Part shown: positions 8,564 through 34,490 of the stretch, one piece after another
Position numbering within the stretch: position 1 is the first letter of the stretch
How the letters are laid out: every line of letters begins with the position of its first letter
From: a virus
Length of the DNA stretch: 64,000 bases
Reading direction: 5' to 3' (one strand)
Virus record (IMG/VR): IMGVR_UViG_3300042445_000711
Coordinates: 1 to 64,000 of that record
The notes under the pieces: generated by a model
What the model was told of the DNA's origin: nothing
Database searches by the model: none
The model's input: only the letters and a program-made list of their open reading frames with translations
Program-made: the position numbers and the translations under genes

Positions 8564-8589
8564 ATGTATAAATATCTCAAAATTTAAGA

Positions 8590-8715: not shown

Positions 8716-8730
8716 ATTTTTTTCTTTGTG

Positions 8731-8747
8731 TATAAATATATAAATAT
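8731..8747. promoter_or_regulatory. Tandem TATAAATA/TATTTATA late-promoter-like motifs in a divergent intergenic region
   Basis: tataaatatataaatat lies between the divergent genes starting at 8715 (-) and 8780 (+). Confidence 0.55.
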
Positions 8748-8779
8748 TTGATATATATAACTATATAAGTTACATAAAA

Positions 8780-9751
8780 ATGAAGATATTAATTACAGGT
8801 GGAGCCGGTTATTTAGGTTCTGTTATAGTTGGTAGAATGTTGCAAGAAGGGCATTCCGTTATAGTTTTAGATAAACTATTATTTAACCAAACTTCTTTAT
8901 TACAATACACACACCATTCTGAATTTAAATTTATCTACGGAGATGTTCGTAATGAAAAACTATTGGAAAAACTTTGCAATCAAGTAGATGTGATTATTCC
9001 ATTAGCAGCAATTGTAGGATTTCCTGCTTGTGATGCCGAACCTCAATTGGCAAAGGAATTAAATTTGATTCAAATTCAAAATATAATAAAATTTACAAAA
9101 GGTAAAGGTAAAAAGATTTTATATCCAAATACAAATAGTGGATATGGAATTGCAGAAGGTCAATCAGAATGTACCGAAGAATCCCCATTAAATCCAATAT
9201 CAGTTTATGGTTCTACTAAGGTTGAAGCAGAAAGACTTCTAAAAGAACATACAGATGCAATCATTTTTAGATTAGCAACCGTCTTTGGAGTATCTGCAAG
9301 AATGAGAACTGATTTGTTAGTAAACGATTTTACTTATAAAGCAATTACTGATAAATACATCGTAGTATTTGAGAAAAACTTTAAAAGAAACTTTATTCAT
9401 ATAGAAGATGTAGCAAATGCTTTCTTATTTATGTTACACAATTACGATGAACACAAAGGTGAAGTATTTAATGTTGGTTTAAGTGATTCAAATTTAAATA
9501 AACAACAATTATTGGAAAAGATAAAATTACAAGTTCCAAAATTTGCAATTGTTTATGATGATTATTACGAAGACCCTGATAAAAGAGATTACATTGTTTC
9601 TAATGCTAAAATTGAAGCAACAGGTTGGAAACCAACTTGGAGTTTAGATGAAGGTATTGAACAACTTATAGAAGCATATCAAATGATAGTACCAAGAATG
9701 GGAGCAGAATTTAGAAACGGATTTCCATTAGGTTACGCAAACAATACATAA
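8780..9751 (+). CDS. NAD-dependent NDP-sugar epimerase/dehydratase (extended SDR)
   Basis: TGGAGYLG, YGSTK (YxxxK), RLATVFG, RNFIHIED. Confidence 0.92.
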   Translation: MKILITGGAGYLGSVIVGRMLQEGHSVIVLDKLLFNQTSLLQYTHHSEFKFIYGDVRNEKLLEKLCNQVDVIIPLAAIVGFPACDAEPQLAKELNLIQIQNIIKFTKGKGKKILYPNTNSGYGIAEGQSECTEESPLNPISVYGSTKVEAERLLKEHTDAIIFRLATVFGVSARMRTDLLVNDFTYKAITDKYIVVFEKNFKRNFIHIEDVANAFLFMLHNYDEHKGEVFNVGLSDSNLNKQQLLEKIKLQVPKFAIVYDDYYEDPDKRDYIVSNAKIEATGWKPTWSLDEGIEQLIEAYQMIVPRMGAEFRNGFPLGYANNT

Positions 9752-9752
9752 T

Positions 9753-10289
9753 ATGAGTTCAAATTGGAAAGAGTTCGAAGTAACTCCATCAAAAAAATTC
9801 GGAAACGAAGTAGAAATATACACACCATCAATTTATAGAGAATACAGAGGTGAGATATTTACAACATTTCATTCAGAGGAACATCCTGTAATGTTAAAAC
9901 TTACACCATATGTTTCGGTACATGGTAGATTTTCAAAATCATACAAAGGTGTATTAAGAGGATTACATTATGATACTAAAACTTGGAAATTAGTCCAAGC
10001 AGCAGTTGGTGATATATACCTCATTGTTTTGGACGTAAGAGAAGATTCTCCTACCTATGGGGATTGGGAATCATTCATCATATCTGAACGTAACAGACAA
10101 CAGGTATTAGTTCCTCCTGGGTTTGCAAATGGTCACTATGCACTTACTGATTGTATGTTTCATTATAATTTATTTTACGATGGTCAATATGTAGATGCAA
10201 ATGAGCAAGGTGTTGTTAAATGGAATGACCCGGAGTTTCAAATGGAATGGCCAACAGATAAACCAATATTACAAAAAAGAGACAGATGA
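9753..10289 (+). CDS. rmlC: dTDP-4-dehydrorhamnose 3,5-epimerase family cupin (RmlC-like)
   Basis: GVLRGLHY, KLVQ, LDVREDSPTYG, VPPGFANGH, WNDP. Confidence 0.9.
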   Translation: MSSNWKEFEVTPSKKFGNEVEIYTPSIYREYRGEIFTTFHSEEHPVMLKLTPYVSVHGRFSKSYKGVLRGLHYDTKTWKLVQAAVGDIYLIVLDVREDSPTYGDWESFIISERNRQQVLVPPGFANGHYALTDCMFHYNLFYDGQYVDANEQGVVKWNDPEFQMEWPTDKPILQKRDR

Positions 10290-10915
10290 TAAAAAACATA
10301 GAAAATTTCCCAATTGTTAAGGAATCATTGTGGGATAAAGATGGATTGATTGATTTTGAAAGAAGAATAGCAGATGCATGGGAAGGTGGTAACATACGAG
10401 GTCCTATACATTTGAGTGGTGGAAATGAAGAACAAATAATTGAAATTGGAAAAAGAATCAAATCAACCGATTGGGTATTTAGTACCTGGCGTTCTCATTA
10501 TCACGCATTAGTAAAAGGAGTTGATTCAAAGTGGTTAGAAGATGAAATTCTTGCAGGTAGAAGTATCACTATTGTAAATAAAGAAGAAAAGTTTTATTCA
10601 TCGGCAATAGTTGGTGGAACTATTTCAATTGCAATGGGTGTTGCTATGGCAAATAAAAGAAGTGGTTCTACAGACAAAGTTTGGTGTTTTGTAGGAGATA
10701 TGGCATTTGAAACAGGTGCTTTTATGGAAAATTATAAATATGCAAAAAACTTTGATTTACCAATTACATTTGTAGTAGAAGATAATGGTGTTTCAACTTA
10801 TACGCCAACAGTTGAAACTTGGAATGTTAAAAGTGAAATTCCAAATGATGTTATTTGGTATGAGTATGAAAAAGTTTGGCCACACTATGGTACTGGAAAA
10901 TGGGTAGTATTTTAA
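10286..10915 (+). CDS. TPP-dependent E1 alpha-like subunit (short)
   Basis: GPIHLSGGNEE, STWRSH, SAIVGG, and TPP motif GDMAFETG...EDN. Confidence 0.9.
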   Translation: MIKNIENFPIVKESLWDKDGLIDFERRIADAWEGGNIRGPIHLSGGNEEQIIEIGKRIKSTDWVFSTWRSHYHALVKGVDSKWLEDEILAGRSITIVNKEEKFYSSAIVGGTISIAMGVAMANKRSGSTDKVWCFVGDMAFETGAFMENYKYAKNFDLPITFVVEDNGVSTYTPTVETWNVKSEIPNDVIWYEYEKVWPHYGTGKWVVF

Positions 10916-12129
10916 ATTTAGTTTTTGATAAGTGGGATGGGGATTCTCCTATTAATAATCTTGCGCATGTAAATGAAAAATTAGGATACAATGGTATAAT
11001 GATGGATTTGTATTTTTTTGGAATAGATGATAATCTTTATAAAAAACATTATTGTAAATTATCAGATATACATCCAGATGAAAATTATTATTATTTGATT
11101 TCACACTATTGTTCCTATGATAATTTATTTAACGAAAACGAATGGGAATTATCAGATGAAGTTGAATATTATGTTAGACATAAAAATTTAAAAGTAATTT
11201 TTTTAAGTGAACATGAAAGCTATATGGACTTTGATGTTGATGTAAAAAAATTATCAGTTTTAATTGATAAAAAAAAATTAAATCTAAAACAATTTTATCT
11301 TATAAATAATAATTCATTAATTAATGATATACAAGATACTACTTCAATTAATTTGTATAAATCAAATTTTTTATTAGGTCAATTTTCGGATTCGGTATTA
11401 AAAAATGAATATAAATTTTCTTTTATAGAAGATAAACCTTTTTTATTTTTATGCCAAAATAGAAGACCAAAAAGTCATCGAATTGCTTTATTAGCATTAC
11501 TCAAAAATAATGGATTATTAGATTCTGGATTAATAGATTGGTCTTTAACATATGGTTTAATGAATCATCCTTTATTAAATGTATATGAACATCAGGATTT
11601 TATAAATGGTGCAAATGATAAAAAATTATTACACAGTTATTATGAAGTTTGCTCTAAACCAAAATTAAATTTTTATGAAACAAATTTAGATTGGTTTGAT
11701 AATCCAAATAATTATTTACATTTTAGACATATAGAATGTAAATCTTATGAGAATAGCTATATTAATATTGCTACCGAATCTCACTATGAAATAAAAGATA
11801 TTCATATAACTGAAAAATCATTTAAACCATTTTATTTTTATCAATTTCCAATTTTTTTAGCATCTTACAGACATGTTGAAAAATTAAAAAAAGAACATTC
11901 TAATTTAGATTTTTTTGAAGATATTATTAATTACGATTATGATTTAGAAATTGATGATAAAAAAAGATTATATATGGTGTTTGATGAAATTGTAAGATTA
12001 TCAAAATTAGAAAAAGAAATAAAAAGTTATTATATAAATAATAAGGATAGATTTATAAAAAATCATGAATATGTTAGTAAATATGGTTTAAATGAAACTA
12101 CAGAAAGATATTTTTACAATTTAATATGA
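10900..12129 (+). CDS. TEKxxKP-family protein, GT10 (alpha-1,3-fucosyltransferase)-like
   Basis: NRRPKSHR and YINIATES...ITEKSFKPF...PIFL. The ATG at 10900 is preferred over the track start at 10876. Confidence 0.6.
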   Translation: MGSILNLVFDKWDGDSPINNLAHVNEKLGYNGIMMDLYFFGIDDNLYKKHYCKLSDIHPDENYYYLISHYCSYDNLFNENEWELSDEVEYYVRHKNLKVIFLSEHESYMDFDVDVKKLSVLIDKKKLNLKQFYLINNNSLINDIQDTTSINLYKSNFLLGQFSDSVLKNEYKFSFIEDKPFLFLCQNRRPKSHRIALLALLKNNGLLDSGLIDWSLTYGLMNHPLLNVYEHQDFINGANDKKLLHSYYEVCSKPKLNFYETNLDWFDNPNNYLHFRHIECKSYENSYINIATESHYEIKDIHITEKSFKPFYFYQFPIFLASYRHVEKLKKEHSNLDFFEDIINYDYDLEIDDKKRLYMVFDEIVRLSKLEKEIKSYYINNKDRFIKNHEYVSKYGLNETTERYFYNLI

Positions 12130-13313
12130 TGAAATTTTATTATGAAAATATTGATTTTAAAAATGTGCCAAACGGAAATGGTGTATGTAAAATTGCAGAG
12201 TTTGATATTAACTATGGATTTAAATTTCCAATATTTGAATTAAATGAAACAGATTCTATAATTTGGAATTTTTCATTTAATCAAGAAATGCGATACCATA
12301 TATTACAAGACAACATTGATTATTTTAACAATGTATTTAAATTGGTTTCAAGTAAACCAAATGTAAAATTAGTTTTTTCTTCTACTCAAGAAGGAGACCA
12401 TATGAACAAATTTGTTTTAAAATTAATAGAATTAAAAAATTATTATAATTTAAAACCAAATCAAATTGTTTTAATTACAATTAATAACTATTTTAAAAAA
12501 GTTACAAATGAAATATTAGTCATATCAAAACCATATTTGTTGGGGTGGTGGTCAACTCATTATAAAAAACTATCATTACCAAATGTATTTGATGAAGGAA
12601 CTCAAATAGCAAGTGTAACTTCTGGAGTAAATGACTATATAATGAATAAAAAGGATTCATTTTTTTTATTATATAATCGCAATTCTACAAAAACATTTAG
12701 AGTTCAAGTTATGTTATGGTTATTAAAAACAGGATTAATAAATGATACAAAATTTTCACTTTTAATAAAAGAAAATGATATTGATTTAAATTTATTAATT
12801 TCAAAAAAAGAAGAATTAAAAGATTTGTGGAAATATTATTCTAAATTTAATGATTTACCACATACTACTTTAGATTGGAATTATCCAACCGATGAACACG
12901 AACCATTATCATCTAAACCAAATTATTTTAAAACAAATTTTAGTATAGTATTAGAATCAAGTTTTAATTCTGAAAGTTTAAATTTAACAGAAAAAAGTTT
13001 TAAACCTTTTGCAAATTGTCATCCATTTTTAATAATAGGTGATGTGTTTGTAAATACTCAATTAAAAAATTATGGATTTACATTATACAATGATTTAATA
13101 GATTATTCATTTGATAAAATATCTAATAATGAAGAAAGATTAAATCAAGCATTAATTGAATTAAAAAGAATACACTCATTGGGTGAAGAACACATAACAG
13201 ATTGGTATAAAAATAATATAGAAAAAATAGCAGAAAACCAACAAGTATTTTTTACATATGGATACAAAAATATAATTAACGATACAATAAGAGATTTAAA
13301 AGTAATTTTTTAA
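12126..13313 (+). CDS. TEKxxKP-family protein, GT10-like
   Basis: FSIVLESS...LTEKSFKPFANCHPFLIIG, IDYSFD. Confidence 0.6.
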   Translation: MMKFYYENIDFKNVPNGNGVCKIAEFDINYGFKFPIFELNETDSIIWNFSFNQEMRYHILQDNIDYFNNVFKLVSSKPNVKLVFSSTQEGDHMNKFVLKLIELKNYYNLKPNQIVLITINNYFKKVTNEILVISKPYLLGWWSTHYKKLSLPNVFDEGTQIASVTSGVNDYIMNKKDSFFLLYNRNSTKTFRVQVMLWLLKTGLINDTKFSLLIKENDIDLNLLISKKEELKDLWKYYSKFNDLPHTTLDWNYPTDEHEPLSSKPNYFKTNFSIVLESSFNSESLNLTEKSFKPFANCHPFLIIGDVFVNTQLKNYGFTLYNDLIDYSFDKISNNEERLNQALIELKRIHSLGEEHITDWYKNNIEKIAENQQVFFTYGYKNIINDTIRDLKVIF

Positions 13314-13323
13314 AAAATATAAT

Positions 13324-14259
13324 ATGAAAAAAATTTTAATAACAGGATGTAGTGGTTTAGTTGGTATTCATTTAGTAAAAAAATGTTTAGATAAAGGTTA
13401 TAATGTAATTGGTGTTGATATTAATCATTCAAATAATTTACCAATATCTGATAAATTTACATTTTATGAATTAGATTTAACAATAGAGGAAAACATAAAA
13501 AATTTATTTTTTTATGAATCTCCTGATGTTGTTTTTAATTGCTTTGGTATAAAAGGTTCTCCAATTAGAGCAAAAGAAAAACCAGTTGATTTTTTATATC
13601 CATCATTTAAAATTAATACCGAAATAATCAATCAATGTTCTAAAAATAATATATGGTTAATATTTGTCAGCTCCGTTGGTGTATATTCTCCTGCAGAAAA
13701 GTTTGTTGAAGGTGATGTGTGGAAATCTTTACCAAGTGAATCCGATTGGTTTCCATCTTGGTCTAAAAGAATGGGTGAAATATTATTAGAAGCATACAAA
13801 GTTCAATATGGTTATGATAAATGGTCTATTATAAGACCTGCTAATATATTTGGTGAATATGATGATTTTAGCGGTAGTGGTACAGTAATTGCATCAACTA
13901 TAAAAAAAGTATATGAAGCAACAGATTCAATTGAAGCATGGGGTGATGGTTCTCCTATTAGAGATTTTGTATATGCTGGTGATGTTGCCGATGCTATTTT
14001 AAGATTGTATGATGATAAGATTCATACTATAATTAATTTTGGCGCGGGTGAGGAAATTACCATAAAACAAATGATTGAAACTTTAATCAAAATAAGTAAA
14101 AAACCAATATCTATAAATTGGGATAGTAGTAAACCAAATGGAGATTTAAGAAGACAAATGGATATTACTAAACAAGTTCAAATAGGATTACTTCCAGTTC
14201 TTGGTTTTGAAAAAGCATTGGAAATTACATATGATTATTATATAAATAAGTTATTATGA
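13324..14259 (+). CDS. GDP-fucose-synthase-like NDP-sugar epimerase/reductase (canonical Tyr absent)
   Basis: TGCSGLVG, RPANIFGEYD, WGDGSPIRDFVY, KPNG. PSWSK replaces YxxxK. Confidence 0.85.
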   Translation: MKKILITGCSGLVGIHLVKKCLDKGYNVIGVDINHSNNLPISDKFTFYELDLTIEENIKNLFFYESPDVVFNCFGIKGSPIRAKEKPVDFLYPSFKINTEIINQCSKNNIWLIFVSSVGVYSPAEKFVEGDVWKSLPSESDWFPSWSKRMGEILLEAYKVQYGYDKWSIIRPANIFGEYDDFSGSGTVIASTIKKVYEATDSIEAWGDGSPIRDFVYAGDVADAILRLYDDKIHTIINFGAGEEITIKQMIETLIKISKKPISINWDSSKPNGDLRRQMDITKQVQIGLLPVLGFEKALEITYDYYINKLL

Positions 14260-15029
14260 TGTTACACGCATACGGTGATAGTTGGACGGAAGGGCAAGGA
14301 TGTAATAGAATAGTTGAAGATTCCTTATCTAAAGAAGAAAGACCATCCTATCGTAAAGAAAATAGTTGGGTTAAATTTTTAGCAGATAAACTAAACATGC
14401 CGTTTATAAATAATGCAGTTAGTGGTAATGCTAACAATAAAATATTTAATCAAATCGTTTTAGATATTCAATCTGAAAAAATAAAAAGCAATGATTTTGT
14501 TACAATAATGTGGAGTTCTTCTTTAAGAGATTATGTTCCCTTTTTACCAAATGGTGAATGGGTTACGTGGTCTATTAAACATTTAATTGAAGAACCTCAC
14601 AAGTTTATTAATTCTTATAATAGTAGTAATTCATTATACGATTCTTTTTTTACAGAATATAAACAATTTTTTATAGGAGAGATGTTTAATCAGAATTATT
14701 ACAATATTGTAAATCAAAATTACATAATTTTTATCCAAAAACTATTTAAACATTATAATATAAATTATATAATGTGTGACAGTTTTGAAAGTATGCTAAT
14801 CAATTTGAATAAAAAGGATGATATTACCAATTTAATAGATAATTCAAAATATTGGGAATTTAATAAACAAACATTTAGAGATTATTTAAATAAAATTAAA
14901 CGATTGGATATTTGGGAAAACCAAAATGAAGAATTTGAAACGAGAGCATCTCAACATCCAAATTTACAAGGTTATAAATTAATAAGTGAAGAGTTATACG
15001 GTTATATAAAAAACAATAAAATATTATGA
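14256..15029 (+). CDS. SGNH/GDSL-fold protein
   Basis: YGDSWTEG, AVSGNAN, QHPNLQGY. Confidence 0.8.
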   Translation: MMLHAYGDSWTEGQGCNRIVEDSLSKEERPSYRKENSWVKFLADKLNMPFINNAVSGNANNKIFNQIVLDIQSEKIKSNDFVTIMWSSSLRDYVPFLPNGEWVTWSIKHLIEEPHKFINSYNSSNSLYDSFFTEYKQFFIGEMFNQNYYNIVNQNYIIFIQKLFKHYNINYIMCDSFESMLINLNKKDDITNLIDNSKYWEFNKQTFRDYLNKIKRLDIWENQNEEFETRASQHPNLQGYKLISEELYGYIKNNKIL

Positions 15030-16003
15030 TAAATAAAAATTCAAAAATCCTTATCACAGGTGGTTCTGGTTTAGTTGGTCAAAATTTAACAAATAGATTA
15101 ATCAAAGAAGGTTATACAAACATTAGAGTTAATTTACACAAAAGAGGTGTAAGAAACTCTATAAATTCTGTAGAATATACACATTTTGATTTACAAACAT
15201 ACGATGGATGCTTAAATGCAGCAAATGGAGTTGAGGTTGTCTTTCATTGTGCAGCAACTACATCAAACGCAGTTGATACAGTAGATGACCCATTGGCACA
15301 CGTTACACCTAACGTATCGATGAACAATTTTTTAATTGATGCTGCATGGAGAAACTTTGTTAAACATTATATTTTTATTTCTTCAAATACTGTATATCCA
15401 CCAAAAGGAGATGAAGCGGTTATTGAAACTGATTTCTTATTTGATGAACCATATCCTGTATATTTTCCAGTTGGTTGGATGAAGCGTTATGCAGAAGTTC
15501 AATGTGAGTTATATGCAAAACATCTACCTCGTACTATGAAAACAACTGTAATAAGACCTGCTAATTTATACGGTCCTCACGACAAATATGATTTTAATAA
15601 ATGCCACGTTACTCCTGCAACCATTAGAAAAGTTGCAGATGAAATGAATCCTATTCCTGTTTGGGGAGATGGTTCTGAGTTAAGAGATTTACTTTATATT
15701 GAAGATTTTGTTGAAGCATTGCAAGTTGTTTTAGAAAAAGAAATCAAAAATGGTTTTGAAGTTTACAATGTTGGTTCTAATTCTGTGCATTCTGTATTAG
15801 AAGTTTTAGATATTATGAAAGAAGTTGCAAACTATGATGCACCTACTGAATTTATTAGTGGTAAACCATCTATGATTCCAACAAGAAAAATAGATTCTAA
15901 TAAAATTTATAATAATTTAGCATGGAAATCTACAACATCGTTAAAGGATGGGTTAAAACTTGCTTATGATTGGTATTTGGAACATAAAAACGAATTTAAA
16001 TAA
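15026..16003 (+). CDS. GDP-fucose-synthase-like NDP-sugar epimerase/reductase (canonical Tyr absent)
   Basis: TGGSGLVG, RPANLYGPHD, HVTPA, WGDGSELRD. VGWMK replaces YxxxK. Confidence 0.85.
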   Translation: MINKNSKILITGGSGLVGQNLTNRLIKEGYTNIRVNLHKRGVRNSINSVEYTHFDLQTYDGCLNAANGVEVVFHCAATTSNAVDTVDDPLAHVTPNVSMNNFLIDAAWRNFVKHYIFISSNTVYPPKGDEAVIETDFLFDEPYPVYFPVGWMKRYAEVQCELYAKHLPRTMKTTVIRPANLYGPHDKYDFNKCHVTPATIRKVADEMNPIPVWGDGSELRDLLYIEDFVEALQVVLEKEIKNGFEVYNVGSNSVHSVLEVLDIMKEVANYDAPTEFISGKPSMIPTRKIDSNKIYNNLAWKSTTSLKDGLKLAYDWYLEHKNEFK

Positions 16004-21309: not shown

Positions 21310-21312
21310 AAA

Positions 21313-27453: not shown

Positions 27454-28834
27454 ATTTGATTTTTTTATAAAACTCCTCTAATTCTGGAAATGTTTTTAAG
27501 AAATTAGTTCCTCTTCTTTTATCATGCTCATCTACAAATTTTACGAAATCTTTTCTATTTGTTTTTAAAATATTTGCATCCGTTTTTGATAATGACCAAT
27601 CATATATTCGTTTTATCTTTTCGGTTTCAACTTCGGTCATTCCCATATGAGTATTTGTAAAAATTGGAACACCTAAATATAAAGCAGTTTTAGCATTATC
27701 TAATATAAGTTCTTTTTGTTTATCAAATAATAATTTAACACTTTGGTGTTGTGGAAATCTTAAATAAGATGTATCTAATAATATAGGATGTTGCCAATAT
27801 CTTTCTAAATTTTGATGTTCTTTTTTGGTTTCCCAAACTTTTTCTATTAACTTATTATAACTAAATGGACTTAAAATATTATAAGTAGACATTATGGTTA
27901 TTGTAACTTTTGGTAATTTATAAAGTACTTTGTTTACATTATCCCAAAATTTATTAAAATTCAAACCATTACGAATATATTCAGCTTGTTCACCATATGC
28001 ATCAACTGATGTAAAAATAATAACTTCTTTAATTCTATCTTCCGAAATTATTCTGTCTAATTTTTGAATTAATTTATCAATTAGTTCATCGGTAACTCCT
28101 AAATTTGAATTAATTGCCAATTTTAATTCTTTGTTTGGATTTGGGTGTTCTAATATATAATCCAAAACTTTCCAAGTATCTTTTGATAAAAGTGGTTCTC
28201 CACCGGTAATTCTAAATGTATTTAAATCAGAATATAATTCAGGCCACCATTTCCAAAATGCTTCAACAAAAGGATTGTATTCACTTTGTAATATTGGCAA
28301 TCTATTTTTTTCAATTAACTTACCGTAACTGTTAAATGAATCTGTAGTTGGATACCCTCCTAATTGTTTTACTTCTTGCAACCATTGTGATGAATATTCA
28401 GGTCCACAATATGAACACTTAAAATTACAAGTATTAGAAAAACTAACTTCAACATATCTTGGATTAAAATCCGCTCTCCAATCTGATTGTATAATTTCAT
28501 CTAAATGTGGTTTAGACCAGGGTTCCGATGATTTATAAATTCTATCGGAATAATTATCCGAATTATCTTCAATATTCCAACAGTAATCACATTCTTCTGG
28601 TCTTTTACCATCTAACATTTCTTTTCTCTTATACTTTTTAAATTTAGTATTATGAAGTGCGGATGGATTTCGTTGTATTTCTGCTATTGGAATTTTATGA
28701 GCAGTTGGGTGGTGGCAAGAGTGATTAAGACCAGTTTGTAAGTGCATGGTTACCTGTGTCCATTTTGCTAAACAAAACCCACAACCTACTGAATCTAAAC
28801 TTTTTTTTGTTTCTTCAAATATATTATTTTGCAT
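27443..28834 (-). CDS. Radical SAM protein with N-terminal twitch/SPASM-like domain
   Basis: FCLAKW..SCHH..CDYC, CNFKCSYC, GGEP. Confidence 0.93.
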   Translation of the reverse strand: MQNNIFEETKKSLDSVGCGFCLAKWTQVTMHLQTGLNHSCHHPTAHKIPIAEIQRNPSALHNTKFKKYKRKEMLDGKRPEECDYCWNIEDNSDNYSDRIYKSSEPWSKPHLDEIIQSDWRADFNPRYVEVSFSNTCNFKCSYCGPEYSSQWLQEVKQLGGYPTTDSFNSYGKLIEKNRLPILQSEYNPFVEAFWKWWPELYSDLNTFRITGGEPLLSKDTWKVLDYILEHPNPNKELKLAINSNLGVTDELIDKLIQKLDRIISEDRIKEVIIFTSVDAYGEQAEYIRNGLNFNKFWDNVNKVLYKLPKVTITIMSTYNILSPFSYNKLIEKVWETKKEHQNLERYWQHPILLDTSYLRFPQHQSVKLLFDKQKELILDNAKTALYLGVPIFTNTHMGMTEVETEKIKRIYDWSLSKTDANILKTNRKDFVKFVDEHDKRRGTNFLKTFPELEEFYKKIKYDN

Positions 28835-30250
28835 CTATAATTTTACATTTATCATAACCGAATTTTCATCCAATTGTTCTATATTAACTAATTCGTATTT
28901 TAATGTACTCAAACCATCGTTTTTATAATCAATTTTATCTTGTTGCATTTCTAAAACATATCTTCTTTCGTTTCTGGCAGTTGTTTCTCCCTTTGCCCAT
29001 TTTTCAATACCACCCACATTAATTAACCCCTCTGTTCTATGTGGTAAACATAAGAATTTTCCATTTCTTCTATGCGGTAATATGGTGTGAGGAATTTCAA
29101 TGAGTTCATTTTTATATTCAACATTTGTAGATTCTCCAAAATCTAACGCCATAGTACAAATATCCAATACTAAATTTTCTTCTGGAGTATTAGTGTGTAG
29201 ATTTTTTATTTCTATTGGAGATAAACATCTATCCCATAATTTTATTTCAGCAATAGCACCTTTAAAATATGATTCGGTAGGGGATTTAGAATATCCAATA
29301 CAAAACGGCTCAAACCCATATCTTTTTAAATTTTCAGTAAAATGCAATGGAGATTGAGTACCAGTACCTAATCTTGCATCACTTTCTTTTCCGTTTAAAT
29401 AAAAATGTATTTTTTTATTATCATTATCAACTGCCATTGTTACCCAACTCCATTGATTTTCATATCGTTTAATCCATTGATATAAATGTTGTTTGGTTCT
29501 ATCCCAAAGTTGCATTGTATATGCTCTACTATTATTAAATGATAATCCCCAATCGTAACCAGGTTTTCTGAATATTGGATACTCTACAAATTGTCTTTCA
29601 GAATCTCCAATTAACCAAATAGGAACTTTTTCTATTTGTTGGTCTGCCTTTACTAATACAGAAATTGTGTGAGATTTTGATAAACACTCTCTTTGTTCAA
29701 TTGAAGGTCTGAATTTTATTTTTGAATCAATACCATTAAAATATCCTACAACTCTTTCCTCACTATATTCTAATTTTGTTTTATTAGCATATCCTTCTTT
29801 TACACATCTCCAAAATAAGTCATCATCCTCCATACCCCAATCCCAATAATCGTTAGAATAACCATTTGTTCTTTCTACTTGTTCTTTTGAGAATATAACT
29901 GCACCACCGAAATACTCTTCGTATTTTAGTTGATAATCTGATTGTGAGATACGAACTGCTATGTGTTGGGGGTTATCATTAGGAAACGAATAATCGCAAG
30001 TGTCATCCTCTGGAACCATATCTATATCGTGCCATACAATGTAATCACATCCATCTTCAAATGCGTGTTTAGCTGCTATATTTTTCATAGCACCTCTGTT
30101 AAACAACTTATCATCTACTTGATGTGCAAAATATATTTTAAAATCAATATTGGCTTCTTTTAAAAATTTAGAAACCGTTGGTATAAATTGTTTTAAATGT
30201 TGTTCTCTATTTCTATATGGAACACATACACCTAATTTATGTTTCGTCAT
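28835..30250 (-). CDS. GT7 (beta-1,4-galactosyltransferase-like) glycosyltransferase with an internal LamG-like domain
   Basis: VPYRNR, FNRG, HDID, YFGG, NGYSN.YWDWGMEDDD, then an insert (FYLNG, FKGAIAEIKLW), then DGLSTL. Confidence 0.9.
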   Translation of the reverse strand: MTKHKLGVCVPYRNREQHLKQFIPTVSKFLKEANIDFKIYFAHQVDDKLFNRGAMKNIAAKHAFEDGCDYIVWHDIDMVPEDDTCDYSFPNDNPQHIAVRISQSDYQLKYEEYFGGAVIFSKEQVERTNGYSNDYWDWGMEDDDLFWRCVKEGYANKTKLEYSEERVVGYFNGIDSKIKFRPSIEQRECLSKSHTISVLVKADQQIEKVPIWLIGDSERQFVEYPIFRKPGYDWGLSFNNSRAYTMQLWDRTKQHLYQWIKRYENQWSWVTMAVDNDNKKIHFYLNGKESDARLGTGTQSPLHFTENLKRYGFEPFCIGYSKSPTESYFKGAIAEIKLWDRCLSPIEIKNLHTNTPEENLVLDICTMALDFGESTNVEYKNELIEIPHTILPHRRNGKFLCLPHRTEGLINVGGIEKWAKGETTARNERRYVLEMQQDKIDYKNDGLSTLKYELVNIEQLDENSVMINVKL

Positions 30251-31680
30251 ATTCCTACATTAATATGCATTATTTTATTACTATGATGAAATTTACTATG
30301 TTCAATAAATTCCAAAGTTGATAATCCATCGTTTTTTATTAATTCATAATTGTGAAAAACTTCATTTTGAAATCTTAACTGATTCCATCTTGTAGACTGG
30401 TCTTTCCACCCATTTCCTAAAAATCCATTTTCTTCGTGTTTTAATAATCTAAAAGTACATTGTCTTCTATGAGGTATTTTAACTTCTGTAAATTCTGGAT
30501 ATTCCTCATCAACTATTTCACAATTTACAATTTTACCTTCTAATCCACTATTTGTTATATCTAATAAAGTATAATATTCTATTACATTTGCATCAAAATA
30601 CGTTTTTAAAGAATTATTTGATTTATAATTACCAAAAGGTTTCATTAATGATTTTGTTTCATTTGTTGAAATTTCTAATATTTCTTCATCTGATAAAACA
30701 TCATCAAAATATGCAAAAGTAGATATTGTACCTTTAAAATGATTTGGTATAGTTTCTCTTCCAGGTTTACCTGCTCCTAAATAAAATTTTGGTTCTTTTC
30801 TATAAAAATGTAATCTTTTAAACTTTTCAGTTTTGCCAATAAAAACACCATCCTGATATAATCTAATTGTATTTTCGGTTTTATCTAATACTACTGCAAT
30901 AGTTGTTTTGTATCTTGGTTTTATTTCTGAATTTATAAAATACGAATTATGTTCTGTATCGAATGCACAAAAATTATACCTAGAAAATGAATTATAACAA
31001 ATAGCAAAATCCCAACCAGGAATACTAAATACAGTAAACTCATCGGTTGGTTTTGTATGGTCTAATGGTTTTTCTTCTGGATAAAAATTTATAAAAAAGG
31101 TTGCATTATTATTTAAGTTAATAACATTATTACATTCAATATATGAATCGATACCATTAAACTTTAATGCTTTTCCCTTTCTACCTATATTACGAATTTT
31201 AAATGTGTCTAAATCAACTTTATTAACTTTACATCTTAATAACAAATCAGTATCTTCAAATCCCCATCCCCAATATTTGTTAGAGTAACCATTTATTTTT
31301 TCAAAATCTTTTACTGGAAATAATGTAACTCCACCAAAATATTCTTGAAAAGTATCTCTTTTTTTCTCATTGTTTTCTAACACAAAATTAGTTGCAAGAT
31401 GTAGTGGTTTATCCGAATACGAATAATCTACATCAACTGGCAACATATCAATATCGTGGAACACTACATAATCACATCTAGCTTTTAAAGCATAATTAAA
31501 TCCTATATTAAGTAATGTTCCTCTATTAAATTGTTTTGCATCATCCTGGTCAACTATGATGATTTTATGTTCTATATTACGAGAGATTAGGTAATTGGAC
31601 ATATAATCCAAAAACACCTTTAATTGAGTTTCTCTTCTTCTATATGGAACAATAACACCAAGTCTATGTCTATCCATCAA
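30247..31680 (-). CDS. GT7 glycosyltransferase with an internal LamG-like domain
   Basis: VPYRRR, FNRG, HDID, WGWGFEDTD, then an insert (LYQDG, FKGTI), then DGLSTL. Confidence 0.9.
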   Translation of the reverse strand: MMDRHRLGVIVPYRRRETQLKVFLDYMSNYLISRNIEHKIIIVDQDDAKQFNRGTLLNIGFNYALKARCDYVVFHDIDMLPVDVDYSYSDKPLHLATNFVLENNEKKRDTFQEYFGGVTLFPVKDFEKINGYSNKYWGWGFEDTDLLLRCKVNKVDLDTFKIRNIGRKGKALKFNGIDSYIECNNVINLNNNATFFINFYPEEKPLDHTKPTDEFTVFSIPGWDFAICYNSFSRYNFCAFDTEHNSYFINSEIKPRYKTTIAVVLDKTENTIRLYQDGVFIGKTEKFKRLHFYRKEPKFYLGAGKPGRETIPNHFKGTISTFAYFDDVLSDEEILEISTNETKSLMKPFGNYKSNNSLKTYFDANVIEYYTLLDITNSGLEGKIVNCEIVDEEYPEFTEVKIPHRRQCTFRLLKHEENGFLGNGWKDQSTRWNQLRFQNEVFHNYELIKNDGLSTLEFIEHSKFHHSNKIMHINVGI

Positions 31681-31858
31681 TTGTTGGGTCTTTTGGTTTT
31701 GCTACTTTATGCCATTCAGCTAAATAATATTGTGCTCTATCACTCCACTCTTGTTTGTCAATTTCTTCAAACCAAACTGTAAGCGCATCTAATGTAGAAG
31801 CAATTTTTTCTAATGCTTTTACTTTCTTTTTTTCTAATTCAAATTGTTCTTCTGTCAT
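31670..31858 (-). CDS. Hypothetical 62-aa protein
   Basis: Overlaps both neighbours in the same orientation. Confidence 0.7.
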   Translation of the reverse strand: MTEEQFELEKKKVKALEKIASTLDALTVWFEEIDKQEWSDRAQYYLAEWHKVAKPKDPTIDG

Positions 31859-32703
31859 ATTGATATTATTTGTTTAATTAATTGTTCCCACTTTGAATAC
31901 CCTAAATAATGATAAGTTGGTGATAATTCAAACCCAAACCTTTCATCATCTAATGGTAATTTAAATCTATACTTTGATAATGCTCTATACATAACTCTGT
32001 ATTCTTCCGAATATGAGTAATCTTTATTTTGATTTGCAACGTGCCTAATTCTACCCGCGCAAGTACTATCCCATTTAAAATGATGAACTTGTACATTATA
32101 CATTTCAATTGGTGCAATTAAAGGATGCTTCCAACCTTGCCATTTCCAAGTTGTATGTCCATCTATCTTTGCATAATGTTGTCCGTTTGTAATCTCAACA
32201 TATCCTTTTGCAATACAAATCTTATTAGGATTTGCACCACTTAATGGGTGTCTAAAAAATCCAGCATATGGAAACTTTTCGAATATATCATCTGTATCTA
32301 ATAACTCAACCATCTCCCCATCTACACCAATTCTATCTACGAATCCACCTCTAACCATATCCCATCCATTCATATCGCAAGCTGCTATAATAGATTTAAG
32401 TGAATACGAATAAGAGTGAAACTCATCATCATCTGATATTACCCACCAATCATTAGGATGCGAGGATTTAACTTCGTTGTAAAGTTTAGTTACTTTTTCC
32501 CAATTATATAATTCTTCAACTACTACTTTTACTATTTTAGCATTTCGAAATTGAGATACGATATTTTGAACCTCTGCTAAATTGGATTGCTCTTCCCAAT
32601 CATACACAACGATATGCATTTCATCCACCATATCTGTATAGTGGTTTAACATATGTTTTAATGTTGTTGTTCTAGAACCTGTTACTGTAACTAATCTAAT
32701 CAT
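31855..32703 (-). CDS. GT-A fold glycosyltransferase (GT2-like)
   Basis: MLNHY, WWVISDDDEF (DxD), GQH, VHHFKW. Confidence 0.82.
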   Translation of the reverse strand: MIRLVTVTGSRTTTLKHMLNHYTDMVDEMHIVVYDWEEQSNLAEVQNIVSQFRNAKIVKVVVEELYNWEKVTKLYNEVKSSHPNDWWVISDDDEFHSYSYSLKSIIAACDMNGWDMVRGGFVDRIGVDGEMVELLDTDDIFEKFPYAGFFRHPLSGANPNKICIAKGYVEITNGQHYAKIDGHTTWKWQGWKHPLIAPIEMYNVQVHHFKWDSTCAGRIRHVANQNKDYSYSEEYRVMYRALSKYRFKLPLDDERFGFELSPTYHYLGYSKWEQLIKQIISI

Positions 32704-33467
32704 TTTCTTCTAACTAATGTAAGACCTGTTGATGATGGTTTATTTTTTACTATTCCAAAGTTAAATAAATCAAATGTTTCCCATTTTGGATTTTCTTTTA
32801 ATTCTTTTACAAACTGAATAGGACCATTCCAATCTTCGTGGTCATTTCTATCTTTAACTTCGTTTGTAACTAAGTAACTATCCGCAAAATTAGGGTCAGT
32901 ATCGTGAATAGAAATAATTCCATTTCGGGATAAGAGTTGGGAATATAATTCAAAATCTTCTTTAACATTTTCATAACTGTGTCCTGCATCTATATGTAAG
33001 TAATCAATTTTAATATCATTTAATACAAAAAAATTATGGAATGCTTCTTCTGTAGTAGTTCCTAAAATACGAGGATGAAAGGTTCTTCTAAAAAATGATT
33101 CTTCTTTGAACCAATCTACCTTACCACCAATGCCATTCATAGCATCAACTACATAAGTAACCCCAATATCTCCCCAATTTAAGTTAGCATCACCTTCAAA
33201 TATACCTTGTCTGTATAAATCATATCTTGCCTGAGTCATTAATCTAGGCACAAAACCCCCACCACTACCTAAACAAACGCAAACTTTTGCTCTCATATAC
33301 TGAATAAGAGAATAAATAATTAAACCATCTCCTAAATGAGTATCAGTTGCTCCATGTGACCATCTGTATGGAACTGGTATTACTTCTTCTTCCTGATGTT
33401 CATTGAATTCTAAATTATTTGTTAAGTAACTTTTTAAGTAGTGTATATCTTGTAGTACTGGTAGCAT
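32700..33467 (-). CDS. Class I SAM-dependent methyltransferase (Methyltransf_24-like)
   Basis: VCLGSGGG, LHIDAGHSYE, GIISIHDT. Confidence 0.88.
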   Translation of the reverse strand: MLPVLQDIHYLKSYLTNNLEFNEHQEEEVIPVPYRWSHGATDTHLGDGLIIYSLIQYMRAKVCVCLGSGGGFVPRLMTQARYDLYRQGIFEGDANLNWGDIGVTYVVDAMNGIGGKVDWFKEESFFRRTFHPRILGTTTEEAFHNFFVLNDIKIDYLHIDAGHSYENVKEDFELYSQLLSRNGIISIHDTDPNFADSYLVTNEVKDRNDHEDWNGPIQFVKELKENPKWETFDLFNFGIVKNKPSSTGLTLVRRK

Positions 33468-33500
33468 TGTCAGTTTTTTAGCTTGGTAATTAAAAGTACA

Positions 33501-34490
33501 TCAAATATACGAAAAAAAATTCAGATTAACAACTGTTTCTATCCATTTATTTTTATCAGTAAATTTTTCCAATCCTTTCTTTAATCTATCAAATTGTTTT
33601 TTATTTTTTTCAAATCCATCTTCTAATATTCGTAGATACTGATAATGAAATTGTTTTTTATTCATTGCTCTGTATCTGTATTTAATATCTTTCATCCAAT
33701 CAGAATGTATTATAGGTAATTTGCCATTATCTATTGCATCAAATATTGCATATCCAAATGGTTCTTTGGTATAACAACCGTGAAATATCTTGAATTGTTT
33801 TTGAAAAAATGTGTTGTGGAAACGATAATCAAATTCTATAAAAGTATGCACATCTGTATTTATCTTACTACCCTCCAACATTCGTTTATAATCGTATTTG
33901 TTTGAAAATATGAAAGCAGGTATCCCATCTAAGTAATGAGCATTTTTTCTTGTTTCACATCTTGCAGCATAACCAATCTTATTACTTACTACCTCTGTAT
34001 ATGGTTTGTTTTGTTTCCATTCATAGTAGTTTGGTATTGTAATTGTATTTGGATAGTATGTATGTATTGTATCTTTTTCATAACCTATCCATACGATATT
34101 TTTAGAATTGTCCAAAATATCCTTTTGCCAATGCCAATCCATTCTTGTCATTAGATTTTCGTACTCATCATTTAATCCCAACATATCAGGAATAAATGCA
34201 TGAACAAACGTTGTGTGAGTTTTGTGAAGATACTTTTTGATTATAGGATTTGGTTTGTAAGAATGGTGTAAAAAAACTATTTTATCACATTCATCTAATA
34301 TCCTATCTATTTCTTCATCATTTCCAAAAGTGTAGATTGCATCTTTTTCTGGCAATAGGGGTCTACCATCAACTACAATTTTATAATCTTCTGTAACTAA
34401 TGGTAAGATGCTCTCTACAAAGTTGTTACACCATATATCAGAACCACCTACTATATTTTTTCCGTAACCAGTTGTAATGAATACTATCAT
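33501..34490 (-). CDS. GT-B fold glycosyltransferase (GT4-like)
   Basis: N-terminal VGGSD, YAARCETRKN, EPFGYAIFDAI..GKLPI. Confidence 0.8.
   Translation of the reverse strand: MIVFITTGYGKNIVGGSDIWCNNFVESILPLVTEDYKIVVDGRPLLPEKDAIYTFGNDEEIDRILDECDKIVFLHHSYKPNPIIKKYLHKTHTTFVHAFIPDMLGLNDEYENLMTRMDWHWQKDILDNSKNIVWIGYEKDTIHTYYPNTITIPNYYEWKQNKPYTEVVSNKIGYAARCETRKNAHYLDGIPAFIFSNKYDYKRMLEGSKINTDVHTFIEFDYRFHNTFFQKQFKIFHGCYTKEPFGYAIFDAIDNGKLPIIHSDWMKDIKYRYRAMNKKQFHYQYLRILEDGFEKNKKQFDRLKKGLEKFTDKNKWIETVVNLNFFSYI
33502..33533 (-). promoter_or_regulatory. Bacteroidota-type primary-sigma promoter ahead of the minus-strand arm of the island
   Basis: GTTG-N20-TATATTTG on the minus strand (consensus TTTG-N19-21-TAnnTTTG). 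Confidence 0.65.

Follow-up and report, generated by a model that had tools for sequence, protein, structure and literature searches.

The 64,000-nt stretch of DNA analysed here (the window), from an uncultured lake phage, carries at 8780-34490 an island of 26 tightly packed genes, about 26 kb, which very probably constitutes a cytoplasmic line for glycan assembly and tailoring. We give a probability of roughly 45% to the reading that this line is inherited with the phage and that its product most likely decorates the phage's own fibre or other virion proteins.

The island is laid out in two convergent arms sharing 4 nt at 17324-17327, as had been proposed from the sequence alone: the ORF list gives 10 ORFs on the plus strand (8780-17327) and 15 of at least 80 aa on the minus strand (17324-34490), to which a conserved 62-aa ORF is added to reach the total of 26. 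Between adjacent genes there is either an overlap of 1-11 nt or a spacer of 0-33 nt, no gap in the minus arm exceeding 33 nt; the single exception is a 40-nt overlap at 10876, an outlier where the TTG start is doubtful. The start of u329, first island gene of the minus arm, overlaps by 4 nt the stop of the fibre gene, one of two flanking genes:

34487-37921, minus strand: 1144-aa trimeric fibre/spike, Ser-rich repeats, S74 chaperone domain at the C-terminus (Pfam Peptidase_S74)
2762-8563, minus strand: 1933-aa multidomain protein, head-side boundary of the island (Pfam CTP_transf_like at the N-terminus)

Ser and Thr make up 24% of the fibre, with repeats at about aa 440-545, and we consider it a candidate glycan acceptor. 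A long Ser/Thr-rich protein is encoded upstream of the GT-B gene in many relatives too.

The 4-nt overlap at which the arms converge, and a GC content slightly below that of the flanks (0.22-0.30 versus 0.28-0.36), could be taken as traces of a bacterial polysaccharide locus joined to phage DNA by faulty assembly or host contamination. This explanation is barely credible. A chimeric assembly, raised by the sequence-only reading as a possible objection, was checked against independent runs: positions 8000-27999 are fully covered by four lake-water runs from four studies, and a 1290-bp independent lake-metagenome contig corresponds, with one mismatch, to 16785-18074 and crosses the arm junction; the island is thus no chimera. 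Moreover, two related loci (L058 and L003) reproduce the gene order, and viral contigs with the block number in the hundreds, three of them complete genomes that encode a Gp23 capsid protein. One population variant lacks u259 (joint 16004 to 16785 in run X1).

The plus arm holds the sugar-nucleotide enzymes and both halves of a thiamine enzyme:

8780-9751, plus strand: SDR1, NAD-dependent sugar-nucleotide dehydrogenase (Pfam Epimerase, E 2e-37; near PDB 6vo6)
9753-10289, plus strand: RmlC-fold cupin, GDP-4-keto-heptose C3/C5-epimerase type (PDB matches)
10286-10915, plus strand: TPPa, diphosphate-binding (PP) half of a split minimal E1/transketolase-type thiamine enzyme (Pfam E1_dh)
13324-14259, plus strand: SDR2, GDP-L-fucose-synthase-like SDR, C4-reductase/epimerase type (NCBIfam GDPFucSynFcl; Pfam Epimerase)
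15026-16003, plus strand: SDR3, second GDP-fucose-synthase-like SDR (NCBIfam GDPFucSynFcl, 1.2e-37)
16779-17327, plus strand: TPPb, pyrimidine-binding (Pyr) half of the split thiamine enzyme (Pfam Transket_pyr)

Locus counts here and below rest on 80 fetched viral loci, the best 80 (58-78% identical) of 534 IMG/VR stretches encoding relatives of the radical SAM enzyme rS5. SDR1, with orthologs 74-83% identical in about 30 loci, matches PDB 6vo6/6vo8 over residues 2-310 (E 2.2e-103); we take 6vo6 to be C. jejuni Cj1427, a GDP-heptose C4-dehydrogenase. The top matches of the cupin (8db5, 8dco and 7m14, E about 1e-42) are GDP-D-glycero-4-keto-D-lyxo-heptose 3,5-epimerases, whereas dTDP RmlC entries reach about 1e-25 at best. 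SDR2 scores 4.5e-37 against GDPFucSynFcl, below its cut-off, and 8e-40 against Pfam Epimerase; SDR3 matches GDP-fucose synthetase (2e-27), GDP-mannose 3,5-epimerase and the C. jejuni entries 7m13, 7anh and 8ewu. On this homology, the four enzymes are probably a Campylobacter-type GDP-heptose tailoring set, and the activated sugar being remodelled is probably seven-carbon. The absence of a guanylyltransferase counts against the heptose assignment, as does a GmhA-like gene found in only two of five relatives with a borderline score; a profile search of three complete relatives found no sugar nucleotidyltransferase (NTP_transferase). TPPa (E1_dh 1.7e-16, also TPP_enzyme_C; NCBIfam PDH E1 alpha 3e-26, below cut-off) is kept at 54-68% in 26 loci, and TPPb (Transket_pyr 5.7e-6, 26.5 bits for a cut-off of 27; NCBIfam E1 beta 3e-8) has orthologs at 60-75% in 12. 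The pair lies side by side in a bacterial locus (L138).

Up to seven glycosyltransferase-like proteins had been counted from the sequence alone. Four are firm, two GT7, one GT-A and one GT-B, while the other three, from a phage-only family, are candidates:

28835-30250, minus strand: GT7a, animal-type beta-1,4-galactosyltransferase-family enzyme with a LamG module (Pfam, B4GALT1 match)
30247-31680, minus strand: GT7b, GT7a paralog at 32% identity (Pfam; in 77 loci)
31855-32703, minus strand: u282, GT-A fold glycosyltransferase with a DDDE motif (AF2 model and Foldseek)
33501-34490, minus strand: u329, GT-B fold, GT4-like glycosyltransferase (AF2 model and Foldseek)
10876-12129, plus strand: u417, phage-only family, candidate GT10-like glycosyltransferase (ESM Atlas lead)
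12126-13313, plus strand: u395, u417-family member, candidate (paralogy)
19193-20284, minus strand: u363, third u417-family member, candidate (paralogy)

GT7a matches GT7N (74.7 bits), GT7C (70.7) and Laminin_G_3 (48.7), and aligns with human B4GALT1 (E 5e-31) including the DxD and WGxEDDD motifs. The u282 model (pLDDT 94) resembles SunS, GalS1 and LARGE1 (E 1e-6, probability 1.0, TM about 0.5), and in 30 sequences D91, D93 and E94 of its DDDE motif are invariant, D92 nearly so. That of u329 (pLDDT 91) resembles GlgM, PimA and BshA (E 3e-10 to 1e-7), with an invariant EPFGY...D.G.P motif. The u417 family, with two further genes outside the window, forms ESM Atlas clusters labelled 'Viruses 100%', whose nearest named family, Glyco_transf_10 at 0.80, gives a weak GT10 lead; PF00852, Pfam and PDB profile searches of this family were all negative.

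The remaining genes encode tailoring enzymes, radical SAM proteins and small or unassigned products:

14256-15029, plus strand: SGNH/GDSL hydrolase or acyl-handling enzyme (Pfam Lipase_GDSL 7e-6, above cut-off)
16003-16782, plus strand: u259, SGNH-like paralog (family HMM link to 14256 at 1e-9)
17324-18097, minus strand: PhyH-type Fe(II)/2-oxoglutarate dioxygenase (Pfam PhyH 4e-18)
18094-19200, minus strand: u368, no Pfam or NCBIfam match, no relative in the other loci
20284-21309, minus strand: u341, SGNH-like paralog (family HMM 1.8e-16)
21313-22527, minus strand: rS1, N-terminal-twitch radical SAM (NF033640, 328 bits for a cut-off of 170)
22527-23876, minus strand: rS2, N-twitch radical SAM (316 bits)
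23873-25225, minus strand: rS3, N-twitch radical SAM (223 bits)
25226-26794, minus strand: rS4, N-twitch radical SAM (304 bits)
26794-27453, minus strand: u219, free-standing LamG/ConA-like beta-sandwich protein, rS5 partner (family HMM)
27443-28834, minus strand: rS5, conserved-core N-twitch radical SAM (351 bits)
31670-31858, minus strand: conserved 62-aa acidic protein (tblastn)
32700-33467, minus strand: class I SAM methyltransferase, Methyltransf_24 (Pfam 1.5e-10; in 68 loci)

All the enzyme classes listed by the sequence-only reading (NDP-sugar, SGNH, methyltransferase, dioxygenase, radical SAM) were thus recovered, radical SAM in five copies. The SGNH family HMM ties the three island members to three genes outside the window and comprises 95 distinct ORFs across loci. 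The dioxygenase has no homolog among the 80 loci and is variable cargo at the arm junction. The 62-aa protein gives tblastn matches in 71 loci, each time directly upstream of GT7b. The enzymes rS1 to rS5 are ancient paralogs, each from a separate old subfamily of NF033640; rS1, which keeps CNxxCxxC, GGEP and four N-terminal Cys, forms its own clade with bacterial sisters. The only cultured-phage match of rS5 is in Ralstonia phage RsoM2USA (40%). Of the 80 loci, 78 encode a member of the u219 family, immediately after rS5 in the loci listed, and positions 62-223 of the family HMM align with GT7a residues 226-376, overlapping the Laminin_G_3 match. In a Bdellovibrionaceae locus, two N-twitch radical SAM genes adjoin a GDP-mannose-dehydratase-like SDR, another SDR, an E1 alpha/beta-like pair, DegT and GT2, a co-location by which radical SAM, thiamine and sugar-nucleotide enzymes belong together.

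The pathway can be sketched from these homologies, from which we infer substrates and the order of steps. SDR1 would oxidise C4 of the activated sugar, the cupin would epimerise C3 and/or C5, and SDR2 and SDR3 would reduce C4 to give more than one stereoisomer. The split thiamine enzyme probably transfers a two-carbon unit onto the 4-keto intermediate, yielding a carbon-branched sugar. The chain would be built by GT-B, GT-A, the two GT7-LamG enzymes and perhaps the three phage-only proteins, and decorated by the methyltransferase, the three SGNH-like enzymes and the PhyH dioxygenase, with putative radical edits on sugars by the five radical SAM enzymes.

Synteny in relatives, suggested earlier as a check, speaks for a stable phage block. 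About 70 of the 80 loci share the order fibre-GTB-MT-GTA-62aa-GT7-GT7-rSAM-LamG, even at 35-45% protein identity, and L058 and L003 repeat SbcCD-fibre-core and core-rSAM-u363 in the same order. In all three complete relatives, tail/fibre genes flank the block on one side and the head module on the other, on the same strand, the radical SAM core being followed by the 1933-aa protein homolog and then a T4-type Gp23 capsid gene, about 13 kb per step. The claimed position between head and tail genes therefore holds in complete relatives but is not visible within the window, since the record's contig ends at base 1. GT7-LamG, u282, the methyltransferase and u329 are absent from bacterial loci, being seen solely in 3-4 short MAG contigs with other island genes, which look like mis-binned phage.

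No island ORF has a membrane segment (no 19-aa hydropathy window above 1.6), and Bac_transf, Glycos_transf_4, Polysacc_synt and ABC2_membrane were not found in the whole genomes of the three complete relatives. The earlier failure to recognise an exporter, priming transferase or TM protein is thus confirmed, by hydropathy in the island and by profiles in the relatives, and supports a glycan made by soluble enzymes. Its acceptor could be DNA, as in T4, which glycosylates hydroxymethylcytosine, with the transferases acting on modified bases and the other enzymes making and tailoring the sugars. The u329 model does match T4 alpha- and beta-glucosyltransferases at fold level, and some pathways of thymidine hypermodification include radical SAM enzymes. 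However, that match is generic and ranks below many GT4 enzymes, the block sits in the virion and not the replication module, and SGNH enzymes together with GT7 carrying a lectin-type module suggest a glycan. DNA is an unlikely target because a thymidylate-synthase/hydroxymethylase-family gene is missing from two of the three complete relatives; the full-length match of the third (E 2.6e-93) looks like an ordinary ThyA. DNA hypermodification as a whole is highly improbable. Somewhat less so, yet still improbable, is a glycoconjugate that is free or linked to a lipid or metabolite (a sugar-bearing small molecule, say, or a storage or decoy oligosaccharide), inside or outside the infected cell and unattached to virion, DNA or host envelope. 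Every island enzyme is soluble, and radical SAM, thiamine-dependent branching, SGNH and methyltransferase activities are typical of natural-product sugar tailoring. In one cyanophage paper a radical SAM, aminotransferase and amidinotransferase trio was read as 'antibiotic synthesis' genes. The island nevertheless encodes no scaffold-forming enzyme (PKS, NRPS, cyclase), and 4-7 transferases with fixed fibre-gene synteny better suit a polymer on a macromolecule.

A serious rival, if a less probable one, is remodelling of the host surface, in which new sugars would be added at the cytoplasmic face to host lipid-linked O-chain, capsule or S-layer intermediates and carried out by host flippases or ABC exporters. 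If so, the cell surface would change in the course of the latent period, perhaps so that superinfection is blocked or progeny do not stick to lysed cells. Most bacterial O-antigen and capsule glycosyltransferases are likewise soluble or peripheral, so the absence of membrane proteins is compatible with host intermediates and host export. Among solved structures, those nearest to the sugar-nucleotide enzymes belong to a capsule pathway, and other bacterial radical SAM arrays neighbour GT2, an ABC-transporter ATPase and an ArnT-like PMT_2 protein, typical of cell-surface glycan loci, and also a carbamoyltransferase. Host-surface modification is also the published reading for the 24 'LPS' genes of cyanophage P-SSM2 and for pelagimyophage host-recognition clusters (about 45 kb, with glycosyltransferases and radical SAM cassettes). 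These comparable phage islands are already in the literature, and the earlier remark that such a scale is better known from giant eukaryotic viruses was overstated. Against host remodelling, neither a priming transferase nor a flippase or permease is encoded by the three complete relatives. The core glycosyltransferases are phage-specific and keep a stable order relative to fibre and head genes, not patchy like borrowed host genes, and translational coupling to a structural gene is unusual for an early exclusion function. Promoter motifs are ambiguous as to expression timing.

Of the virion-glycan interpretation first proposed, the soluble cytoplasmic glycan is supported, while a virion protein is the favoured candidate acceptor, because the block is translationally coupled to the Ser-rich fibre gene and because relatives carry it inside a virion super-module, co-inherited in hundreds of contigs. 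Enrichment of [ST]-G-[ST] in virion proteins was rejected as a sequon signal, being equally strong in Microcystis phage Mel-JY01, which has neither rS5 nor GT7a. Besides the absence of GT7-LamG, u282, the methyltransferase and u329 from bacterial loci, ESM Atlas clusters of rS5 and u417 are 91-100% viral; such a phage-specific core fits a function intrinsic to the phage better than recently borrowed host genes.

Ten listed genes (8780-17327) make up the + strand arm of the island and 15 (17324-34490) its - strand arm. The two arms share a 4-nt overlap where they converge, and a small acidic ORF under the listing threshold brings the total to 26. Adjacent genes overlap by 1-11 nt or are separated by gaps of at most 33 nt, and the first gene of the - arm overlaps by 4 nt the stop of the preceding 1144-aa fibre gene. 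No island protein contains a hydrophobic 19-residue window scoring above 1.6. Besides the enzymes discussed below, the layout includes two features:

2762-8563, - strand: 1933-aa protein with an HxGH nucleotidyltransferase N-terminus (GRFQPFHAGH), a Gly/Ala-rich hydrophobic stretch and an HEMVH zincin-like motif
31670-31858, - strand: acidic 62-aa ORF between the GT-A glycosyltransferase gene and GT7b, under the 80-aa listing threshold and kept in 71 of 80 related loci

The sequence-only reading had allowed for a chimeric assembly. This is ruled out by four independent lake runs, which cover 8000-27999 at 95-100% identity, and by a 1290-bp lake contig (16785-18074) that bridges the convergent junction. 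Its placement of the island between head and tail genes is borne out in three records (202, 238 and 287 kb) with a rating of complete, where the radical SAM gene rS5 is followed about 13 kb on by a large protein and about 13 kb further by the Gp23 gene, all on one strand. A T4-type Gp23 capsid gene is present in the complete relatives, and homologs of the 1933-aa protein are found there as ORFs of 1301-1740 aa between island and capsid gene. The island thus sits between the tail/fibre and head modules.

An IMG/VR scan with rS5 returned 534 stretches encoding a relative, 80 of which were fetched as loci (contigs up to 287 kb). In about 70 of these 80, even at 35-45% protein identity, the fibre gene is followed in the same order by the GT-B transferase, a methyltransferase, the GT-A transferase, the 62-aa ORF, two GT7 transferases, rS5 and a LamG-like protein. 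Downstream of this core, relatives carry either extra radical SAM paralogs in varying number or a sugar cassette running from the dehydrogenase-like SDR1 through a cupin and TPPa to SDR2, SDR3 and TPPb, and then the 1933-aa protein. The cassette lies on the same strand as the core in most relatives and is inverted in place in the window; similar convergent arms are seen in the related locus L061. Lake metagenomes also contain contig variants, whose joints have short sides and which are leads only: in one run, u259 of the + arm is exactly deleted (16004-16785), and in three runs an identical 28-nt filler joins 8637 to 18929, possibly a strain devoid of the + arm. Outside the window there is another, smaller cluster of sugar-related genes (contig ~64.2-75.4 kb; locus L085, contig 62000-75568), with three SGNH-like genes, two u417-family members, a 2OG-Fe(II) oxygenase, a peptide deformylase and UvdE.

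The parent record is linear, 75,568 bp long and about 40% complete according to CheckV; the window has a GC content of about 29%. Searching for words of a 6-kb test stretch (14500-20500) listed 24 runs from 22 studies; 14 runs, which are lake-water metagenomes, contained half or more of the words sampled, and there were no RNA runs among those listed. Judged on the baseplate wedge, SbcCD and a 1636-aa structural protein, at only 30-42% identity, the closest cultured phages are Microcystis phage Mel-JY01 (190 kb) and Flavobacterium phage vB_FspM_immuto, together with an uncultured 484-kb phage; the tblastn matches to the baseplate wedge or the 1636-aa protein included no Pelagibacter or cyanobacterial T4-like phages. 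Against 50,697 phage records, neither megablast with the island DNA nor tblastn with GT7a gave any match. The only rS5 homolog there was in Ralstonia phage RsoM2USA, which was considered as a cultured model and dropped, having one radical SAM and one SDR gene and lacking the rest of the core.

The + arm encodes what appears to be a heptose-modifying cassette. SDR1 matches PDB 6vo6 at E 2e-103, an entry labelled by its depositors 'putative sugar-nucleotide epimerase/dehydratase' and which we take to be Cj1427, the GDP-heptose C4-dehydrogenase. The RmlC-fold cupin best matches GDP-D-glycero-4-keto-D-lyxo-heptose 3,5-epimerases (~1e-42, vs ~1e-25 for dTDP RmlC), and SDR2 and SDR3 are GDP-fucose-synthase-like. 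Homologs of a C4-dehydrogenase, a C3/C5-epimerase and a C4-reductase are therefore encoded together, in a cassette order repeated in about 25 loci. This follows the enzyme logic of capsular GDP-heptose modification in Campylobacter jejuni, which employs the Cj1427 C4-dehydrogenase, Cj1430-type C3/C5-epimerases and Cj1428-type C4-reductases (Biochemistry 2023, PMC10680097). Unlike the C. jejuni pathway, the island adds a split thiamine enzyme and five radical SAM enzymes, and resides in a phage genome lacking capsule export genes, whose complete relatives have no HddC-type guanylyltransferase and only sporadically a GmhA-like gene (a SIS_2 gene in two of five relatives, at a borderline ~28 bits). 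A GDP-heptose supply of the phage's own (GmhA, HddA, GmhB, HddC) did not emerge from a search that covered NTP_transferase and SIS_2.

TPPa (10286, PP-domain) and TPPb (16779, Pyr-domain) constitute a split, minimal thiamine enzyme of the E1/transketolase type. E1_dh scores 60.5 bits and Transket_pyr 26.5 bits, the latter slightly below its cut-off of 27; the counterparts in a bacterial locus (L138) score clearly, at 70.5 and 91.2 bits. Some thiamine enzymes attach two-carbon branches to 4-keto sugars, among them YerE for yersiniose and AviB1/AviB2 for avilamycin. By analogy, TPPa and TPPb would put a two-carbon branch on a 4-keto sugar. Like these systems, an E1 alpha/beta-like pair is found among NDP-4-keto-sugar enzymes in both phage and bacterial loci; unlike them, both phage subunits are of minimal size (209 and 182 aa) and have six genes between them. 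The + arm also contains two SGNH-like proteins and u417 and u395, two members of a phage-only family.

Among the transferases of the - arm, GT7a and GT7b exceed the Pfam gathering score in both halves (Glyco_transf_7N/7C, 74.7/70.7 and 76.8/67.4 bits). An alignment to human B4GALT1 (E 5e-31) covers both the DxD and the WGxEDDD motif. As in animal GT7 enzymes, both halves are above cut-off and the catalytic motifs are kept, here in phage-encoded proteins. Unlike animal beta-1,4-galactosyltransferases (CAZy GT7; B4GALT1, B4GALT7), the phage GT7s carry past residue 155 a LamG of about 160 aa and then about 120 residues: the alignment to B4GALT1 ends at residue 154-155, LamG spans 191-349 and the C-terminal 120 aa have no match. 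Two further transferases were recognized by fold, from AlphaFold models built on alignments of relatives. The first, u282 (31855-32703), is of GT-A fold (pLDDT 94), with Foldseek matches including SunS, GalS1 and LARGE1 and a conserved DDDE motif of which three of the four residues are invariant. The second, u329 (33501-34490), has a GT-B, GT4-like fold (pLDDT 91), with matches including GlgM, PimA and BshA. By sequence, neither these two nor rS5 had a useful match in the PDB.

The phage-only family of u417, u395 and u363 displays a C-terminal motif resembling GT10, and the ESM Atlas gave Glyco_transf_10 for the u417 family at 0.80 only. We reject membership in GT10: PF00852 had no match on the contig at E <= 10, and Pfam scans of 34 members and a PDB profile search returned only noise. 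The sequence-only reading had counted up to seven glycosyltransferase-like proteins; four of them are firm (the two GT7, u282 and u329), and since the direct GT10 tests failed the other three remain candidates. The - arm further encodes a Methyltransf_24 enzyme, a PhyH dioxygenase, an SGNH-like protein, u363 and one gene without assignment. For u368 (18094), the PhyH gene and flanking ORFs at 1419 and 2049, nothing was assigned beyond Pfam and no relatives were found in the fetched loci.

The - arm also contains a radical SAM array. All five proteins, rS1 to rS5, score above the curated cut-off of 170 bits for NF033640 (N_Twi_rSAM, N-terminal-twitch radical SAM), at 328, 316, 223, 304 and 351 bits. 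They are invariant at C136/C140/C143 (CxxxCxxC), at GGEP 211-214 and at four N-terminal cysteines, C21/C40/C82/C85, for an auxiliary cluster, although pairwise identity among them is only 20-34%. In a quick FastTree phylogeny with midpoint root, every paralog groups with its phage orthologs in a separate clade that has bacterial sister groups, suggesting old, specialised subfamilies instead of recent duplicates. Between rS4 and rS5 lies u219 (219 aa), which shares homology with the LamG module that the GT7s carry. Our literature search for NF033640 found no paper on the family and no known reaction; the family was met there as a catalogue entry only.

In one-per-species genomes, relatives of rS5 (36-50% identity) cluster in MAGs of Bdellovibrionota, where they often lie on contigs of megabase length. 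N-twitch radical SAM genes form tandem arrays there of up to eight paralogs (L106, L109, L116, L118, L138); as read from ORF clustering and Pfam scans, recurring neighbours are GT2, an ABC ATPase, a membrane transferase (PMT_2) and a carbamoyltransferase of the NodU type. One Bdellovibrionaceae locus has two of them beside a GDP-mannose-dehydratase-like SDR, a second SDR, an E1 alpha/beta-like pair, DegT and GT2. In cells, these gene neighbours connect both NF033640 and the thiamine enzyme with the chemistry of sugar nucleotides and glycans. Arrays of old subfamilies are common to the island and to Bdellovibrionota; the bacterial loci have export genes and the phages have retained the cytoplasmic part only. 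A NodU/Nol-type carbamoyltransferase (60917-62611, - strand; PHROG E 1e-122) is encoded among tail genes of the window, and this family flanks bacterial radical SAM arrays in six loci. The rS5 matches at 57-62% identity in Pelagibacter, Pelagibacterales, Alphaproteobacteria and Flavobacteriales MAGs are on short contigs, three of four with other island genes, and hence look like mis-binned phage. On three short contigs from MAGs labelled Pelagibacter, Flavobacteriales and Pelagibacterales (L086, L090 and L100), the phage core is present at 57-78% identity; this is probably phage DNA that was assigned to bacterial genomes in binning, and perhaps a hint at low-GC hosts.

We consider it unlikely that the five N-twitch enzymes, assisted by the free LamG-like protein, edit sugars within a heptose glycan that is already assembled and linked to protein on the fibre, with one radical reaction per subfamily. 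The reactions would be epimerisation, oxidation or C-C/C-H chemistry, differing by subfamily.

With control genomes positive, no sugar-1-phosphate nucleotidyltransferase (NTP_transferase) was found in five of five relatives, three of them complete, so the phage must rely on activated sugars from its host. The N-terminal 'cytidylyltransferase' of the 1933-aa protein was considered as the missing activator and rejected on its GRFQPFHAGH motif, presumably of the NMN-adenylyltransferase (NMNAT-like) type. The three complete relatives, controls again being positive, likewise lack polyprenyl-phosphate priming transferases (PF02397 Bac_transf, PF00953 Glycos_transf_4), a Wzx-type flippase (PF01943) and an ABC-2 permease (PF01061); the phage alone would thus be unable to start or export a lipid-linked polymer.

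We put at about 0.45 the probability that the acceptor of the product is virion protein. This reading is favoured by the absence of carrier and export genes, by the stable synteny with virion genes, by a transferase core specific to phage, and by translational coupling of the island to a fibre gene with Ser-rich repeats. These repeats, of about 11 residues and of the VLSGSVSGTIG type, occupy aa 440-545 of the fibre (34487-37921, - strand) and recur near-identically in two related loci (L058 and L015). Remodelling of the host surface, the preferred reading in the literature on similar phage clusters, would be open to soluble transferases if they used host lipid-linked intermediates; given the same missing genes and the coupling to the fibre, we hold it less likely, though a serious rival. 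A free product or some other conjugate appears improbable. Glycosylation of DNA seems most improbable: the thymidylate-synthase family (PF00303; dNMP hydroxymethylase) is absent from four of five relatives, including two of the three complete ones, making hydroxymethyl-pyrimidine DNA glycosylation unlikely, and no gene of this family was seen in the scanned window or contig ORFs.

Two further leads on acceptor and timing were rejected. The [ST]-G-[ST] motif occurs 63 times in fibre and baseplate proteins against 18.6 expected; as a glycosylation sequon it is dismissed because the Mel-JY01 control shows equal enrichment (51 against 11.7), and tblastn found no rS5 or GT7a homologs in Mel-JY01. 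A T4 late-promoter reading of TATAAATA is not above chance (18 vs 21) and has the wrong orientation before - strand genes. Its copies lie on the + strand in 17 of 18 cases; five (8567, 37937, 43200, 46404 and 51354) are 4-23 nt upstream of - strand starts, where the coding strand reads TATTTATA. A tandem pair at 8731-8746, 34 nt upstream of SDR1, provides the sole copies fitting that reading. Terminator and promoter scans remained at chance level.

Chloroviruses and mimivirus encode their own cytoplasmic nucleotide-sugar enzymes, glycosyltransferases and methyltransferases and coat capsid or fibrils with the products; they are eukaryotic viruses and their enzymes are unrelated to those of the island. 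Radical SAM arrays are not known from their glycan machinery. The virion-glycosylation systems of mycobacteriophages reportedly comprise a few transferases using host sugars, unlike the 26 genes here, which include sugar synthesis and radical tailoring. As summarised in a later paper, these systems use soluble phage transferases whose genes adjoin structural genes, with glycans on capsid and tail proteins (Freeman et al. 2023, cited in PMC12619734). The island resembles them in that its predicted soluble transferases are encoded with structural genes.

Phage sugar islands of such size are already on record. P-SSM2 carries 24 'LPS' genes (Sullivan 2005, PMC1079782), a marine T4-like genome of 183 kb has 12 radical SAM genes (PMC5332604), and pelagimyophage host-recognition clusters combine glycosyltransferases with radical SAM cassettes gained or lost between close relatives (Zaragoza-Solas 2020, PMC7029224). 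The P-SSM2 and pelagimyophage papers list genes and propose a change of the host O-chain (PMC1079782, PMC7029224), without the enzyme-level reading and the conserved core given here. Freshwater fonsimyophages are described as carrying neither LPS nor radical SAM genes (PMC7029224), whereas the present phage is from lakes. New here are the enzyme-level reading, the conserved seven-gene core, the cassette inversion, the lack of carrier, export and hydroxymethylase genes across whole genomes, the bacterial radical SAM context and the failed sequon test.

Sugar clusters of aquatic T4-like phages have been seen since 2005 without experimental explanation. What the island contributes here is a core of seven genes, defined and conserved, with a GDP-heptose-type sugar as the candidate substrate and, as the candidate acceptor, the Ser-rich fibre whose gene lies directly upstream. 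Its predicted enzymology would be of interest either way, with NF033640 radical SAM enzymes, a putative thiamine enzyme, split and minimal, within a sugar pathway and an apparent animal-type GT7 with a lectin-fold module. Were the editing of finished glycans by radical enzymes true, it would represent a new class of post-glycosylation tailoring, common to aquatic phages and the surface glycans of predatory Bdellovibrionota, and gain or loss of cassettes would diversify the virion coat. If the host surface is changed, this would amount to superinfection exclusion on a large scale in lytic phages. Should the virion be what the glycan covers, a self-made, variable sugar coat would surround phages that abound in lakes and oceans, and would bear on their adsorption, decay, grazing and host range.
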